The notes beneath the pieces were generated by a model that did no database searches, was not told the origin of the DNA, and saw nothing but the letters and a program-made list of their open reading frames with translations. Both the position numbers and the translations under genes were made by a program. Shown in pieces: positions 33,150 through 44,984 of a stretch of 64,000 bases of DNA. Numbering within the stretch: the first letter of the stretch is position 1; every line of letters begins with the position of its first letter. Origin of the DNA: Escherichia coli (GTDB taxonomy: Bacteria; Pseudomonadota; Gammaproteobacteria; Enterobacterales; Enterobacteriaceae); the NCBI RefSeq assembly GCF_046105845.1, contig NZ_CP151004.1; one strand, 5' to 3'.

Positions 33150-33291
33150 CGGTAAAGCCCTCACCGAAGCGAGGGCTTGAAGGAGAAGGGTTATGATGCG
33201 ACTTGTCATCATACTGATTGTACTGTTACTCATAAGTTTCCCAGCTTATTAACAGTCAGTCTCAGGGGAGGAGTCATCCTCCCTTACCCTT
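33150..33291 (-). ncRNA. sibC: SibC antisense sRNA (antitoxin to ibsC); boundaries approximate
   Basis: Opposite strand of ibsC; putative sigma70 promoter (TTGACA, 17-nt spacer, TAATTT) at 33299-33327 and a minus-strand GC hairpin (33165-33188) with T-rich tail at the other end. Confidence 0.6.
33193..33252 (+). CDS. ibsC: Type I toxin IbsC (19-aa hydrophobic peptide)
   Basis: SD aggagaaggg then ATGATG...; translation MMRLVIILIVLLLISFPAY, one residue different from the IbsC sequence I recall; not in ORF track because it is too short. Confidence 0.85.
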   Translation: MMRLVIILIVLLLISFPAY

Positions 33292-33298
33292 ACTCACT

Positions 33299-33327
33299 AA
33301 ATTAGGTTAAAGAATCAACGATGTCAA
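33299..33327 (-). promoter_or_regulatory. Putative sigma70 promoter of sibC
   Basis: Minus-strand TTGACA (33322-33327) with 17-nt spacer to TAATTT (33299-33304). Confidence 0.45.
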
Positions 33328-33973: not shown

Positions 33974-34159
33974 AGGGAATCTCCGAGATGCCGCCGCAGG
34001 CTGTAACCCTTGAACCCTTGGTTCAAGGTGAATGTGTCGTCGCAGTTTTAAGGCTTCTCGGACGGACCGAGCATGCTCACCAACCGCGGAGCGCCACATT
34101 CTTGTGGTATGAAATATCGGCTCAGGGGACTGGCCCGCTTGCGAACATCTCAGAGAAAT
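33974..34159 (-). ncRNA. ssrS: 6S RNA (RNA polymerase sigma70-holoenzyme regulator)
   Basis: Minus-strand sequence AUUUCUCUGAGAUGUUCGCAAGCGGGCCAGUCCCCUGAGCCGAUAUUUCAUACC...GGAGAUUCCCU matches the E. coli 6S RNA as I recall it; located between zapA and ygfA. Exact 3' end uncertain by a few nt. Confidence 0.93.
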
Positions 34160-39027: not shown

Positions 39028-39474
39028 AAATTTCTCATCTGTTGTTTATTTGATACCCATCACACTTTCATCTCCCGGTTTTTTCGCCGGGAGATTTTCC
39101 TCATTTGAAATAAACTAATTTCACCTCCGTTTTCGCATTATATTTTCTAATGTCATGATTTTTTGATTTAGTGTTTTTTGACAATTTTTTAGTTCTTAAT
39201 ATTGCATTAATCAAATTAACTTTCTCATCTGTTTATCTTTATATAGAGATTTGTTCATTTTTTGGTTTTTTATTCTGTTGTGATTTTGGCGTTTTTTAAC
39301 CATAAGCTAATGTGATGATCAATTTTACCTTATGGTTAACAGTCTGTTTCGGTGGTAAGTTCAGGCAAAAGAGAACGATTGCGTTGGGGACCGGGAGTGG
39401 CTCCGATGCTGGGTTTCGTGGTGATAATTTCGCCATGGAAAAGTTGTCAGCCCCGCTTATTCAATGAGGACAAG
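39028..39474. promoter_or_regulatory. Long AT-rich regulatory region upstream of the gcvTHP operon
   Basis: 447-bp non-coding stretch with multiple A/T tracts; the gcv operon is known to be controlled by GcvA/GcvR, Lrp, PurR and CRP. Individual sites not mapped here. Confidence 0.5.
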
Positions 39475-40569
39475 ATGGCACAACAGACTCCTTTGTACGA
39501 ACAACATACGCTTTGCGGCGCTCGCATGGTGGATTTCCACGGCTGGATGATGCCGCTGCATTACGGTTCGCAAATCGACGAACATCATGCGGTACGTACC
39601 GATGCCGGAATGTTTGATGTGTCACATATGACCATCGTCGATCTTCGCGGCAGCCGCACTCGGGAGTTTCTGCGTTATCTGCTGGCGAACGATGTGGCGA
39701 AACTCACCAAAAGCGGCAAAGCCCTTTACTCGGGGATGTTGAATGCCTCTGGCGGTGTGATAGATGACCTCATCGTCTACTACTTTACTGAAGATTTCTT
39801 CCGCCTCGTTGTTAACTCCGCCACCCGCGAAAAAGACCTCTCCTGGATTACCCAACACGCTGAACCTTTCGGCATCGAAATTACCGTTCGTGATGACCTT
39901 TCCATGATCGCCGTACAAGGGCCGAATGCGCAGGCAAAAGCTGCCACACTGTTTAATGACGCCCAGCGTCAGGCGGTGGAAGGGATGAAACCGTTCTTTG
40001 GCGTGCAGGCGGGCGATCTGTTTATTGCCACCACTGGTTATACCGGTGAAGCGGGCTATGAAATTGCGCTGCCCAATGAAAAAGCGGCCGATTTCTGGCG
40101 TGCGCTGGTGGAAGCGGGCGTTAAGCCATGCGGCCTGGGCGCGCGTGACACGCTGCGTCTGGAAGCGGGTATGAATCTTTATAGTCAGGAGATGGACGAA
40201 ACCATCTCTCCTTTAGCCGCCAATATGGGCTGGACTATCGCCTGGGAACCGGCAGATCGTGACTTCATCGGTCGTGAAGCCCTGGAAGTGCAGCGTGAGC
40301 ATGGCACAGAAAAACTGGTTGGTCTGGTGATGACCGAAAAAGGCGTGCTGCGTAATGAACTGCCGGTACGTTTTACCGATGCGCAGGGCAACCAGCATGA
40401 AGGCATTATCACCAGCGGGACTTTCTCCCCGACGCTGGGTTACAGCATTGCGCTGGCGCGCGTGCCGGAAGGTATTGGTGAAACAGCGATTGTGCAAATT
40501 CGCAACCGTGAAATGCCGGTTAAAGTGACGAAACCTGTTTTTGTGCGTAACGGTAAAGCCGTCGCGTGA
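39475..40569 (+). CDS. gcvT: Glycine cleavage system T protein (aminomethyltransferase)
   Basis: ORF 39352..40569 trimmed to [39 protein letters not shown] at 39475 with SD tgagga; 364 aa. Confidence 0.96.
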
Positions 40570-40592
40570 TTTACTTTTTTGGAGATTGATTG

Positions 40593-40982
40593 ATGAGCAA
40601 CGTACCAGCAGAACTCAAATACAGCAAAGAACACGAATGGCTGCGTAAAGAAGCCGACGGCACTTACACCGTTGGTATCACCGAACATGCCCAGGAGCTG
40701 TTAGGCGATATGGTGTTTGTTGACCTGCCGGAAGTGGGCGCAACGGTTAGCGCGGGCGATGACTGCGCGGTTGCCGAATCAGTAAAAGCGGCGTCAGACA
40801 TTTATGCGCCAGTAAGCGGTGAAATCGTGGCGGTAAACGACGCACTGAGCGATTCCCCGGAACTGGTGAACAGCGAACCGTATGCAGGCGGCTGGATCTT
40901 TAAAATCAAAGCCAGCGATGAAAGCGAACTGGAATCACTGCTGGATGCGACCGCATACGAAGCATTGTTAGAAGACGAGTAA
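40593..40982 (+). CDS. gcvH: Glycine cleavage system H protein (lipoyl carrier)
   Basis: 129-aa protein [34 protein letters not shown]... Confidence 0.96.
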
Positions 40983-40990
40983 CGGCTTTA

Positions 40991-41065
40991 TTCCTCTTCT
41001 GCGGGAGAGGATCAGGGTGAGGAACTTTTACGCCTCACCCTCACTCTCTTCGCAAGGAGAGAGGT
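40991..41065. repeat. GC-rich palindromic intergenic element between gcvH and gcvP
   Basis: cctcttctgcgggagagg...gggtgagg...cctcaccc...ctctcttcgcaaggagagagg; nested inverted repeats sharing motifs with the element at 44054-44156. Confidence 0.5.
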
Positions 41066-41100
41066 TCACAATTCACTGCACGTTTCAGGAACCATCGCTC

Positions 41101-43974
41101 ATGACACAGACGTTAAGCCAGCTTGAAAACAGCGGCGCTTTTATTGAACGCCATATCGGACCGGACGCCGCGCAACAGCAAGAAATGCTGAATGCCGTTG
41201 GCGCACAATCGTTAAACGCGCTGACCGGCCAGATTGTGCCGAAAGATATTCAGCTTGCGACCCCGCCGCAGGTTGGCGCACCGGCGACCGAATACGCCGC
41301 GCTGGCGGAACTCAAGGCTATTGCCAGTCGCAATAAACGCTTCACGTCTTACATCGGCATGGGTTACACCGCCGTGCAGCTACCGCCGGTTATTCTGCGT
41401 AACATGCTGGAAAATCCGGGCTGGTATACCGCGTATACTCCGTATCAACCTGAAGTCTCCCAGGGCCGCCTTGAAGCACTGCTCAACTTCCAGCAGGTAA
41501 CGTTGGATTTAACCGGGCTGGATATGGCCTCTGCTTCTCTTCTGGACGAAGCCACCGCTGCCGCCGAAGCAATGGCGATGGCTAAACGCGTCAGCAAACT
41601 GAAAAATGCCAACCGCTTCTTCGTGGCTTCCGATGTGCATCCGCAAACGCTGGATGTGGTCCGTACTCGTGCCGAAACCTTTGGTTTTGAAGTGATTGTC
41701 GATGACGCGCAAAAAGTGCTCGACCATCAGGACGTCTTCGGCGTGCTGTTTCAGCAGGTCGGCACTACCGGTGAAATTCATGACTACACTGCGCTTATCA
41801 GCGAACTGAAATCACGCAAAATTGTGGTCAGCGTCGCCGCCGATATTATGGCGCTGGTGCTGTTAACTGCGCCGGGTAAACAGGGCGCGGATATTGTCTT
41901 TGGTTCGGCGCAACGCTTTGGCGTACCGATGGGCTACGGTGGCCCACATGCGGCATTCTTTGCGGCGAAAGATGAATACAAACGCTCAATGCCGGGCCGT
42001 ATTATCGGTGTATCGAAAGATGCAGCTGGCAATACCGCTCTGCGCATGGCGATGCAGACTCGCGAGCAACATATTCGCCGTGAGAAAGCGAACTCCAACA
42101 TTTGTACTTCCCAGGTACTGCTGGCAAACATCGCCAGCCTGTATGCCGTTTATCACGGCCCGGTTGGCCTGAAACGTATCGCTAACCGCATCCACCGTCT
42201 GACCGATATCCTGGCGGCGGGCCTGCAACAAAAAGGTCTGAAGCTGCGTCATGCGCACTATTTCGACACCTTGTGTGTGGAAGTGGCCGACAAAGCGGGC
42301 GTACTGACGCGTGCCGAAGCGGCTGAAATCAACCTGCGTAGCGATATCCTGAACGCGGTTGGGATCACCCTTGATGAAACCACCACGCGTGAAAACGTGA
42401 TGCAGCTTTTCAGCGTGCTGCTGGGCGATAACCACGGGCTGGAGATCGACACGCTGGATAAAGACGTGGCTCACGACAGCCGCTCTATTCAGCCTGCGAT
42501 GCTGCGCGACGACGAAATCCTCACCCATCCGGTGTTTAATCGCTACCACAGCGAAACCGAAATGATGCGCTATATGCACTCGCTGGAGCGTAAAGATCTG
42601 GCGCTGAATCAGGCGATGATCCCGCTGGGTTCCTGCACCATGAAACTGAACGCCGCCGCCGAGATGATCCCAATCACCTGGCCGGAATTTGCTGAACTGC
42701 ACCCGTTCTGCCCGCCAGAACAGGCCGAAGGTTATCAGCAGATGATTGCGCAGCTGGCTGACTGGCTGGTGAAACTGACCGGTTACGACGCCGTTTGTAT
42801 GCAGCCGAACTCTGGCGCACAGGGCGAATACGCGGGCCTGCTGGCGATTCGTCATTATCATGAAAGCCGCAACGAAGGGCATCGTGATATCTGCCTGATC
42901 CCGGCATCTGCCCACGGCACTAACCCCGCTTCCGCGCATATGGCGGGGATGCAGGTGGTGGTTGTGGCGTGTGATAAAAACGGCAATATCGATTTGACTG
43001 ATCTGCGCGCGAAAGCGGAACAGGCGGGCGATAACCTCTCCTGTATCATGGTGACCTATCCTTCCACCCACGGCGTGTATGAAGAAACGATCCGTGAGGT
43101 GTGTGAAGTCGTGCATCAGTTCGGTGGTCAGGTTTACCTTGATGGCGCGAACATGAACGCTCAGGTTGGCATCACCTCGCCGGGCTTTATTGGTGCGGAC
43201 GTCTCGCACCTTAACCTGCATAAAACTTTCTGCATTCCGCACGGTGGTGGTGGTCCGGGTATGGGACCGATCGGCGTGAAAGCGCATCTGGCACCGTTTG
43301 TACCGGGTCATAGCGTGGTGCAAATCGAAGGCATGTTAACCCGTCAGGGCGCGGTTTCTGCGGCACCGTTCGGTAGCGCATCTATTCTGCCAATCAGCTG
43401 GATGTACATCCGCATGATGGGCGCAGAAGGGCTGAAAAAAGCAAGCCAGGTGGCAATTCTTAACGCCAACTATATTGCCAGCCGCCTGCAGGATGCTTTC
43501 CCGGTGCTGTATACCGGTCGCGACGGTCGCGTGGCGCACGAATGTATTCTTGATATTCGTCCGCTGAAAGAAGAAACCGGCATCAGCGAACTGGATATTG
43601 CCAAGCGTCTGATCGACTACGGTTTCCACGCGCCGACCATGTCATTCCCGGTGGCGGGTACGCTGATGGTTGAACCGACCGAATCCGAAAGCAAAGTGGA
43701 ACTGGATCGCTTTATCGACGCGATGCTGGCTATCCGCGCAGAAATTGACCAGGTGAAAGCCGGTGTCTGGCCGCTGGAAGATAACCCGCTGGTGAACGCG
43801 CCACACATTCAGAGCGAACTGGTCGCCGAGTGGGCGCATCCGTACAGCCGCGAAGTTGCAGTATTCCCGGCAGGCGTGGCAGACAAATACTGGCCAACAG
43901 TGAAACGTCTGGATGATGTTTACGGCGACCGTAACCTGTTCTGCTCCTGCGTACCGATTAGCGAATACCAGTAA
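41101..43974 (+). CDS. gcvP: Glycine dehydrogenase (decarboxylating), glycine cleavage system P protein
   Basis: ORF 41017..43974 trimmed to [22 protein letters not shown] at 41101; 957 aa. Confidence 0.97.
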
Positions 43975-43996
43975 TTTACTGATTCGACTATCTTCT

Positions 43997-44018
43997 AAAG
44001 GCGCTTCGGCGCCTTTTT
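43997..44018 (+). terminator. Intrinsic terminator of gcvP
   Basis: aaaggcgc ttcg gcgccttttt: perfect 8-bp GC stem, tetraloop, T-run. Confidence 0.88.
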
Positions 44019-44053
44019 AGTCAGATGACAAAGTACAAAAGTGCTCAGACAGT

Positions 44054-44156
44054 CCCCTCGCCCCTTTGGGGAGAGGGTTAGGGTGAGGGGAACAGGCCGG
44101 CACTGGCGCGAATATTTACCCTCACCCCGGCCCTCTCCCTGAAAGGGCGAGGGGGA
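44054..44156. repeat. GC-rich imperfect palindromic repeat element (boxC-like; family assignment uncertain)
   Basis: cccctcgcccctttggggagagggttagggtgagggg ... ccctcaccccggccctctccctgaaagggcgaggggg: the two halves are near reverse complements around a ~28-nt centre. Confidence 0.6.
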
Positions 44157-44240
44157 AAAGCGTGCCAACATTGAAGATTGAGCCAGTTTGTTAGCAATCT
44201 AAAAGATACGTCAACGAATTAATTTTTCCAGGAAAAACAA

Positions 44241-44984
44241 TTGGCTATAGCACTTGTGACCGGTGGCAGTCGCGGCATCGGGCGGGCAACTGCATTACTG
44301 TTGGCGCAAGAAGGGTATACGGTGGCGGTTAATTATCAGCAAAACCTCCACGCGGCGCAGGAAGTGGTGAACTTAATCACGCAAGCCGGTGGCAAGGCAT
44401 TCGTGCTCCAGGCGGATATCAGCGACGAAAATCAGGTCGTCGAGATGTTTACCGCAATCGATCTGCACGATGAACCGCTAGCTGCACTGGTCAATAACGC
44501 CGGGATCTTGTTTACCCAGTGCACCGTAGAAAACCTTACCGCAGAGCGAATCAACCGGGTACTTTCCACCAATGTGACGGGACATTTTCTCTGTTGCCGC
44601 GAGGCGGTAAAACGCATGGCGCTGAAAAATGGCGGTAATGGCGGTGCTATCGTCAACGTCTCTTCAGTGGCCTCACGGCTGGGATCTCCGGGGGAATACG
44701 TTGATTATGCGGCATCGAAAGGGGCGATTGATACGTTAACCACAGGGCTGTCGCTGGAAGTCGCTGCGCAAGGAATTCGCGTTAATGGCGTGCGGCCCGG
44801 TTTTATCTATACCGGAATGCACGCCAGCGGTGGCGAACCTGGACGCGTTGATCGCGTTAAGTCGAACATCCCCATGCAGCGCGGTGGGCAGGCGGAAGAG
44901 GTCGCGCAGGCCATCGTCTGGCTGTTAAGTGATAAAGCCTCTTATGTCACGGGAAGTTTTATCGATTTGGCGGGCGGAAAATAA
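44241..44984 (+). CDS. ygfF: Short-chain dehydrogenase/reductase
   Basis: 247-aa ORF with SDR Rossmann motif TGGSRGIGRA and catalytic Y-x3-K. Confidence 0.92.
   Translation: MAIALVTGGSRGIGRATALLLAQEGYTVAVNYQQNLHAAQEVVNLITQAGGKAFVLQADISDENQVVEMFTAIDLHDEPLAALVNNAGILFTQCTVENLTAERINRVLSTNVTGHFLCCREAVKRMALKNGGNGGAIVNVSSVASRLGSPGEYVDYAASKGAIDTLTTGLSLEVAAQGIRVNGVRPGFIYTGMHASGGEPGRVDRVKSNIPMQRGGQAEEVAQAIVWLLSDKASYVTGSFIDLAGGK

Follow-up and report, generated by a model that had tools for sequence, protein, structure and literature searches.

Introduction

In Escherichia coli, a family of repeats is known under several names, namely BoxC, PIT elements and TMECO triplex motifs (PMC4666352) as well as HPG1/HPG2 putative G-quadruplex motifs (Kaplan 2016, PMC5100583). 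The PIT elements are credited by Holder to Hoyne/Maher et al. 2000 (PMC4666352), and the K-12 catalogue comprises 23 units (Holder 2015, PMC4666352). A BoxC unit spans ~34-37 nt, in which a C-rich block, a 3-4-nt loop and a complementary G-rich block (GGGGAGAGGG) continue into a mirror half made of a 3-nt loop (TTA or CCG) and a mirror G-rich block (GGGTGAGGGG). So far BoxC/PIT/TMECO repeats have been studied nearly only as unusual DNA structures, in terms of triplexes, G-quadruplexes and instability, with no accepted role in gene expression. In this study we analysed a 64,000-nt stretch of E. coli DNA (contig NZ_CP151004.1 of assembly GCF_046105845.1, hereafter the window) and describe an element at positions 40991-41065, between gcvH and gcvP of the gcvTHP operon, which on sequence grounds is best called a degenerate BoxC derivative and not a consensus member of that family.

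U-poor stem-loops were found to set the steady-state 3' ends of E. coli RNAs by resisting polynucleotide phosphorylase (PNPase) and RNase II (Dar & Sorek 2018), a study that cites the classical work on REP stabilisers (Newbury et al. 1987; Espeli et al. 2001). In the gcvTHP operon of Dickeya dadantii a 'strong internal TTS' (transcription termination site) with ~71% termination was located after gcvH (PMC9239193). For the E. coli locus we favour, with a confidence only somewhat above even, that a decayed BoxC pair supplies a hairpin which sets and protects the 3' end of the gcvT-gcvH message and so uncouples gcvTH from gcvP.

Results and discussion

Architecture of the spacer element

The operon order is gcvT (39352-40569, + strand), gcvH, gcvP. 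The upstream cistron gcvH, whose message would end in the element, occupies 40590-40982 (+ strand; open reading frame list and K-12 annotation); its translation is identical to E. coli GcvH and its stop codon is at 40980-82. The downstream cistron gcvP occupies 41101-43974 (+ strand; annotated ATG at 41101, 957 aa). Between them lies an intercistronic spacer of 118 nt (40983-41100, + strand; K-12 equivalent 3049042-3049159). The original prediction had placed the element inside the gcvTHP operon, where it would be transcribed; the K-12 annotation agrees on its position between gcvH and gcvP, and both this annotation and the Dickeya paper (PMC9239193) put it inside the gcvTHP transcription unit. 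In the K-12 RefSeq record no repeat feature is annotated in this spacer.

The element was found to consist of two units of three blocks each, one on either strand, and its motifs read CCTCTTC-tgc-GGGAGAGG-atca-GGGTGAGG, the 10-nt centre aacttttacg, and CCTCACCC-tca-CTCTCTTC-gcaa-GGAGAGAG. Unit 1 (40993-41022, + strand) contains CCTCTTC at 40993-99, followed in an 8+4+8 register by GGGAGAGG at 41003-41010 and GGGTGAGG at 41015-41022. Unit 2 (41033-41064) lies on the minus strand, and its blocks, as read on the + strand, are CCTCACCC at 41033-41040, CTCTCTTC at 41044-51 and GGAGAGAG at 41056-63.

A canonical BoxC inverted pair is present in the same window at 44054-44156, with TMECO 11 on the + strand and TMECO 10 on the minus strand. 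It is separated from the gcvP terminator by 35 nt and is followed by the gene ygfF (start 44241). It corresponds to units 10+11 in Table 1 of Holder et al. 2015 (K-12 3045989-3046024 and 3046087-3046052; PMC4666352). Its architecture is the same as that of the spacer element, but longer and cleaner, and its RNA fold reaches -78.4 kcal/mol. Both are inverted pairs in the 8+4+8 register with the arrangement C-block, G-block, G-block / spacer / C-block, C-block, G-block. For the octamer GGGTGAGG, 1.2 occurrences would be expected in the window and 5 were counted, four of them within the two elements.

Relationship to the BoxC family

A profile was built from the 23 printed K-12 units and run over the 64-kb window with nhmmer. 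The two top-ranked matches, 44055-44090 (E 2e-12) and 44153-44119 (E 8e-10), with 43 and 35 bits respectively, were the canonical units. The third-ranked match in the window was unit 1 of the spacer (41001-41022, + strand; 12.3 bits, E 0.012) and the fourth was unit 2 (41064-41034, minus strand; 4.2 bits, E 4.1). As a null for these scores we used 150 Markov-simulated 64-kb windows, which gave one match of at least 12.3 bits and 31 matches of at least 4.2 bits, and no pair on opposite strands within 120 nt. Unit 2 is significant only jointly with unit 1, as no such pair was found in the 150 simulated windows.

Direct alignment gave the same picture. The spacer aligned locally with the gcvP-ygfF pair with a score of 44 (58/96 identical), compared with 16.7+/-3.2 (maximum 34) for 2000 shuffles. 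With the spacer at the same site of Enterobacter cloacae the score was 68 (69/100; z ~15; shuffles 17.2+/-3.3, maximum 33), and the best paralogue by alignment was the K-12 hrpB-mrcB pair, with a score of 69 and 65/94 identical positions. Chance similarity was rejected as an explanation on the basis of the simulated windows and the shuffled alignments. The original prediction had described 40991-41065 as a second, shorter copy of the motifs at 44054-44156, and had called for a pairwise alignment of the two; the motifs are present at these coordinates, and profile, simulation and an alignment score well above shuffles support a degenerate copy of the same family. That this family is the long-known BoxC/PIT/TMECO was absent from it.

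The spacer copy is listed neither in Holder's 23-unit catalogue (PMC4666352) nor in the main-text list of Kaplan 2016 (PMC5100583). When 28 Gb of E. coli genomes were searched by BLAST with an 85-nt spacer query (E<=10), only the single locus and no paralogue was detected; a query with the canonical pair matched E. coli genomes at a median of 17 sites each. The relationship of the spacer copy to the canonical units is visible only by profile or direct alignment. The name 'RU-3', given by Delihas to a 103-bp element, was also considered for the 103-bp canonical element and rejected, the printed sequence of RU-3 being a REP/BIME pair.

Compared with a BoxC unit, order, orientation and the 8+4+8 register are kept and two core octamers are exact, and the blocks are shortened or substituted. 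The layout as an inverted pair is like that of the K-12 pairs 1+2, 7+8, 10+11 and 12+13, and membership in a dispersed intergenic family is borne out by canonical units in the same spacer of 7 other genera or genomes.

RNA structure and the mapped 3' end

The whole spacer RNA was predicted by RNAfold to form three hairpins, with -44.3 kcal/mol and a z of -4.3. HP1 (40992-41010, + strand; -10.0 kcal/mol, z -2.9) pairs block 1 with block 2 of unit 1. HP2 (41014-41041, + strand; -15.1 kcal/mol, z -4.9) pairs the inner G-blocks of both units; its arms AGGGUGAGG and CCUCACCCU form a GC-rich stem of 9 bp closed by a 10-nt loop. HP3 (41044-41063, + strand; -10.6 kcal/mol) pairs block 2 with block 1 of unit 2, and its loop is polymorphic, GCAA or GUAA. 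In an alternative fold HP2 is lengthened by GAGAG/CUCUC pairs and reaches -24 kcal/mol.

A published RNA 3' end coincides with this structure. In the Term-seq data of Adams et al. 2021 (PMC7815308, Supplementary file 1) a 3' end is recorded at K-12 3049097 on the minus strand, with 412,219 reads in lysogeny broth (LB) at an optical density (OD) of 0.4 and 171,112 at OD 2.0. The file comprises one sheet for each of three conditions and gives this coordinate three times; its class is 'orphan', which denotes a distance of >50 nt from a gene end. Carried over via the spacer alignment and the printed flank CCUCACCCUCACU, this dominant end falls at window position 41045 (+ strand; spacer nt 63), so that the RNA ends CCUCACCCUCACU-3'. 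This places the end 4 nt beyond HP2 and within the 5' arm of HP3, a hairpin which occurs only in read-through RNA. RNA truncated at the mapped end folds into HP1 and HP2 with -28.3 kcal/mol (z -4.3). The suggestion in the original prediction that the element acts as an RNA stabiliser or processing site fits this 3' end, 4 nt past the central hairpin.

In the same sheet (LB OD 0.4; PMC7815308) the terminator of gcvP at K-12 3046123 has 36,065 reads and the end of 6S RNA has 392,534. The semi-quantitative count at 3049097 is thereby >10x that of gcvP's own terminator, a hairpin ggcgcttcggcgcc followed by ttttt at 43999-44019, whose 3' end at K-12 3046123 corresponds to window position 44019.

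The association of a BoxC hairpin with a 3' end is also seen elsewhere. At three other transcribed BoxC copies, K-12 847200(-), 3781065(+) and 3959467(-), the Term-seq end lies 3-5 nt beyond the C-block/G-block hairpin (PMC7815308). The copy at K-12 847200 (GGGGAGAGGATTAGGGTGAGGGG) is another degenerate unit that is not among the published 23.

Literature searches for gcvH together with small RNA (sRNA), RNase E, ProQ, RIL-seq or BoxC returned nothing on the gcvH-gcvP spacer, and no paper joining BoxC with gcvH or gcvP was found in the literature searched. Within these limits the link between the orphan peak at 3049097 and a BoxC remnant appears to be undescribed.

Termination or a barrier to exonucleases

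An intrinsic terminator is expected to combine a GC-rich hairpin with a 7-8-nt U-rich tract. The tail that follows HP2 (CACUCUCU) has 3 U in 8 nt and the HP2 loop is 10 nt; at the DNA level (tail CACTCTCT, 3 T/8) no such tract is present. A scan of 39200-44400 with promoter and terminator consensus models did not call HP2 and found no promoter, a result of little weight, as the real gcvP terminator (43999-44019) was missed as well. What was found is the structure of a REP-like stabiliser, a stem-loop free of a U-tract with a published 3' end 4 nt past its stem.

The chief alternative to an exonuclease barrier is weak hairpin-dependent termination. HP2 would then be a genuine, inefficient, U-poor terminator or attenuator at which some transcripts are released by RNA polymerase itself a few nt beyond the stem-loop. 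The 9-bp GC-rich stem and the pyrimidine-rich tail (UCACUCUCUUC) are in line with this, as are the hairpins with a T-run at the same site in Yersinia nurmii, Photorhabdus, Pectobacterium, Dickeya and some Pantoea (with a weaker tail in Serratia and Providencia), the ~71% termination in Dickeya, and the E. coli long-read studies cited for an internal site after gcvH (PMC9239193). Yet the U content and loop of HP2 are poor for a terminator, and its 3' end is 4 nt from the stem, compared with the usual 7-9 nt, and looks trimmed. PIT/BoxC elements had no terminator activity in earlier studies (Holder's summary, credited to Maher et al.; PMC4666352), and U-poor hairpin ends in E. coli are generally defined by exonucleases (Dar & Sorek 2018). 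The coordinate 3049097 is absent from the Rho-termination table of Adams et al. 2021 (PMC7815308). We consider termination as the main cause of the 3' end rather unlikely.

We infer a barrier to exonucleases in preference to termination because the tail is U-poor, PIT/BoxC elements reportedly show no terminator activity, other BoxC copies have similar ends, and U-poor stem-loops were found to act in this way by Dar & Sorek 2018. The following course of events is proposed. The element would descend from an inverted pair of BoxC units that has decayed and become fixed in the gcvH-gcvP spacer of Escherichia, and would probably trace back to the insertion event still visible as a canonical pair in the corresponding spacer of Enterobacter and relatives. 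Transcribed within gcvTHP, it would fold into the three hairpins. The polycistronic RNA would be cut or ended further downstream, and HP2 (AGGGUGAGG/CCUCACCCU, ~-15 kcal/mol, without a U-tract) would then stop 3'->5' exonucleases and set the main steady-state 3' end of gcvT-gcvH, possibly with some contribution from inefficient termination at HP2. As a consequence gcvTH mRNA would accumulate independently of, and in excess over, gcvP mRNA, and the ratio of H to P expression may be affected. Of all this, the family relationship, the fold and the fixation in E. coli are established by the analysis and the position of the 3' end by published mapping; the barrier, the altered ratio and selection for it are proposed.

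Several points weigh against the proposed barrier function. Term-seq counts favour stable structured ends, and according to a passage in the Dickeya paper, SMRT-Cappable-seq and SEnd-seq studies support a termination site after gcvH in E. coli (PMC9239193). The literature searched yielded no HP2 deletion, exonuclease-mutant mapping or in vitro transcription. The comparison of alleles described below is a small sample of 8, the fixation of the element could result from linkage to two genes of essential function 118 nt apart, and hairpins or terminators may be favoured targets for repeat insertion, without selection for a hairpin.

Conservation within E. coli and the question of a DNA-level role

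The segment 40900-41200 was matched in 5425/5426 complete E. coli genomes ('gcvH | gcvP' annotation), with a spacer identity of at least 94%. Eight E. coli alleles were compared. Differences within HP2 were located in its loop (three positions and a 1-nt indel), and outside HP2 they comprised single positions in the HP3 loop and in the linker and one change of HP1 from G.U to A-U, the latter in allele E21, where the wobble G41005.U40998 becomes an A-U pair. The only change of stem length among the sampled alleles is a 6-nt tandem duplication of CCTCAC in the 3' arm of HP2 (window 41033-41038) in E. coli TW10590 (L091), and pairing is still possible there. No pair-breaking change was present among the sampled alleles. 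In so small a sample, the sparing of the stems is no more than suggestive of constraint.

The canonical pair, 3 kb away, behaves differently. Its gcvP-ygfF region (43940-44280) is intact, i.e. covered over at least 80% of the query, in 3027/5426 E. coli genomes. In many genomes the matches end at query nt 79 (~44018), past the gcvP terminator and before the BoxC pair. The site looks like a rearrangement breakpoint beside the canonical repeat, unlike the fixed spacer copy.

This bears on the possibility that the element acts as DNA, through an intrastrand triplex or a switch between G-quadruplex and hairpin that disturbs replication or transcription or promotes rearrangement. Canonical units do form triplexes and G-quadruplexes in vitro, rearrangement between strains is more frequent at loci that carry triplex motifs, and the canonical pair after gcvP sits at a breakpoint. 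As a measure of triplex or G-quadruplex potential we took three matched ~10-nt blocks with no more than one mismatch, or four G3+ tracts. When the sequence is inspected for these features, each spacer unit has two GGG tracts (canonical units have four G3-4), the duplex of block 1 with block 2 is 7 bp with a T.G mismatch between C-block and G-block, and block 2 mirrors block 3 at 6/7 positions. Even for a canonical unit, in vivo footprinting missed the triplex (PMC4666352). A triplex or G-quadruplex role at the spacer is extremely improbable, given the erosion of the G-runs and the fixation of the locus, which 5425/5426 genomes retain.

The same spacer in other genera

For comparison we assembled 80 gcvH loci from species-representative genomes, together with Salmonella and cryptic-clade Escherichia. 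The degenerate pair was found in all Escherichia alleles, and in one divergent allele (L003) the TTA loops are still canonical and the inner hairpin has 18 bp. Units of the canonical BoxC type (24-34 bits) were found at this position in Enterobacter cloacae, E. asburiae, a Pseudocitrobacter metagenome-assembled genome, Buttiauxella and Pluralibacter gergoviae. The junctions are common to the pairs of Escherichia, Enterobacter and Pseudocitrobacter, 8-10 nt past the gcvH stop and 8 nt before the ttcactgcacgtttcaggaacc leader.

Other genera carry other elements here. REP/BIME sequences were found in the spacers of Citrobacter, Lelliottia and some Enterobacter, and ERIC-like sequences together with REP in Salmonella, C. 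koseri and Kluyvera, the spacer elements of Salmonella being 152-288 nt. Loci of this kind are those of Salmonella enterica (L092-L096) and of Citrobacter (L002-L007, L014 and L040; REP/BIME or ERIC-like). One intercistronic site is thus occupied by three unrelated families of small repeats (BoxC, REP/BIME and ERIC-like) across the Enterobacteriaceae. Among more distantly related taxa, a hairpin followed by a T-run is present in Yersinia nurmii, Photorhabdus, Pectobacterium, Dickeya, several Pantoea and some Shewanella, and a hairpin with a weaker T-tail in Serratia and Providencia; the spacers of Erwinia and Rosenbergiella are only 8-23 nt. Where the spacer exceeds 50 nt, a hairpin of -11 kcal/mol or better was found in all fetched loci but two (L018 and L063), and these hairpins mostly begin within ~35 nt of the gcvH stop. 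BoxC units of at least 15 bits numbered 10 in the 9.4 kb of spacers and 5 in the other 712 kb fetched, a density ~150-fold higher in the spacers.

A broader evolutionary account may be put forward tentatively. The hairpin after gcvH would be a selected attenuator or stabiliser inside the operon that sets the ratio of T and H to P; an ancestral terminator of hairpin and T-run would have given way, more than once, to mobile palindromic repeats inserting at the site, which were BoxC for Escherichia and Enterobacter and ERIC/REP for Salmonella and Citrobacter. The BoxC pair of Escherichia would then have been domesticated, losing the G-runs that form triplexes or G-quadruplexes, and the instability that goes with them, and keeping its RNA hairpins. 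This account is possible, but we hold it with distinctly less confidence than the end-setting function of HP2 itself.

The opposite view is that of a neutral relic, an old BoxC insertion in decay. Its 3' end would then be a by-product that every stable hairpin in an RNA brings with it, and no effect on gcv expression would have been selected. The similar 3' ends at other transcribed BoxC copies would be expected on this view, and earlier work found the position of BoxC unlinked to gene function or operon arrangement. The blocks are indeed decayed, at 12.3 and 4.2 bits compared with 35-43 for canonical units, and the unrelated repeats in Salmonella and Citrobacter could mean no more than an insertion hot spot. 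Against it stand the near-complete fixation of the element when the canonical region 3 kb away is intact in little more than half of the same genomes, the sampled substitutions that spare or preserve the stems, the stable hairpins in nearly all spacers >50 nt, and the enrichment of clear BoxC units in the spacers over the flanking 712 kb. On balance we regard a neutral relic as unlikely, and continue to favour HP2 as the determinant of the gcvTH 3' end.

Translation of gcvP and gcvH

The original prediction had raised a modulation of gcvP translation as a further role. Such tuning might act on gcvP through structure near its ribosome-binding site, or on gcvH through stalling of terminating ribosomes at HP1. 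HP1 starts 10-11 nt past the gcvH stop, and gcvP needs to initiate independently because the 118-nt gap excludes translational coupling. Liang, Rudd and Deutscher are said to have described, in 2015, ribosome stalling for REP elements close to stop codons. HP1 is weak, however, at -10 kcal/mol. HP3 ends 24 nt upstream of the AGGA Shine-Dalgarno sequence of gcvP, and the RNA of 41046-41110 folds no better than shuffles (z -0.08). Control of gcvP translation is very unlikely because HP3 lies 24 nt from AGGA and the leader shows no significant structure, and we hold the same for tuning of translation in general.

The element does have an effect on gene calling. As had been pointed out, it is responsible for the over-extension of the mechanical gcvP reading frame (41017-43974, 985 aa), because the last in-frame stop is at 40969-71 and the earliest start codon beyond it is a GTG at 41017-41019 (+ strand), inside GGGTGAGG, which adds 28 codons. 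We concluded that this over-extension is genuine yet trivial.

The gcvP leader (41064-41100, + strand) lies outside the repeat, contains ttcactgcacgtttcaggaaccatcgc with the AGGA Shine-Dalgarno sequence at 41087-90, and is invariant in the 8 E. coli alleles. The ~37-nt block before the gcvP ATG (gattcactgcacgtttcaggaaccatcgc) is near-identical across Escherichia, Salmonella, Citrobacter, Enterobacter and Kluyvera, and it is kept while different repeats replace the remaining spacer across those genera. This conservation exceeds what a Shine-Dalgarno sequence alone requires; candidates to account for it are the ribosome-binding region, an RNase site and an sRNA site.

Other RNA features of the window

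Matches at the Rfam gathering score in the 64-kb window were limited to a Sib antitoxin RNA (33177-33327, minus strand, 136.5 bits) and 6S RNA/ssrS (33976-34159, minus strand, 139.8 bits), which confirms the genomic neighbourhood. At E<=10, the best match in 40850-41250 was whalefall-1, sub-threshold with 19.8 bits against a cut-off of 37.

Strong 3' ends of 80,000-105,000 reads were also recorded at K-12 3050723 and 3050602 (Adams et al. 2021, PMC7815308). These positions, window ~39419 and ~39540 by offset from the spacer, fall in the gcvT leader and 65 nt into gcvT. They hint at premature termination or processing at the start of the operon.

Implications

One of the strongest 'orphan' 3' ends mapped in E. 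coli RNA is here connected, within a well-known operon, with a hairpin of BoxC origin, and the picture across genera suggests that unrelated repeats and true terminators are interchangeable suppliers of a hairpin. If confirmed, it would be a simple example of a dispersed repeat co-opted to set the stoichiometry of enzyme subunits, and the 'orphan' Term-seq peak at K-12 3049097 would be accounted for. The practical value is modest and concerns the annotation of operons and terminators and the engineering of gcvTHP in strains with the reductive glycine pathway, where the H:P ratio is important. Taken as a whole, this is a clear though rather unremarkable instance in which a repeat serves as the end-point or stabiliser of an RNA.

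Comparison with known systems

Like BoxC, the spacer copy combines a C-rich block with its G-rich complement and a mirror block that is again G-rich; its two units lie on opposite strands with the G-blocks inward, as at five K-12 loci. It is intergenic, and some BoxC copies are intra-operon as well (pstA-pstB, yihS-yihR). Unlike BoxC, its blocks are cut to 7-8 nt with substitutions, and its loops are ATCA and TGA instead of TTA or CCG. The centre is 10 nt, whereas four of the five canonical inverted pairs have 16-27 nt and the lldD-trmL pair has ~59 nt. Profile scores are 12 and 4 bits compared with 35-43 for canonical units, the G-tract and triplex potential is mostly gone, and the copy is fixed and not polymorphic.

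Similar to the REP/BIME stabilisers, the spacer element is a transcribed, U-poor, stable palindromic repeat between cistrons at a steady-state 3' end, and by analogy its hairpin would be expected to protect the upstream message. It differs from them in belonging to an unrelated sequence family, without the REP consensus (GCCGGATG) and without a known link to a RAYT-type transposase.

With the internal gcvH terminator of Dickeya, Yersinia, Photorhabdus, Pectobacterium and some Pantoea the element shares its position in the operon and a hairpin of comparable energy (-15 to -23 kcal/mol). The outcome is also shared with the terminator of Dickeya dadantii (PMC9239193), namely a gcvTH transcript and a read-through gcvTHP transcript. 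Unlike in those terminators, the tail of the E. coli hairpin has 3/8 T compared with 6-8/8, and the hairpin derives from a dispersed repeat and not from a dedicated terminator.

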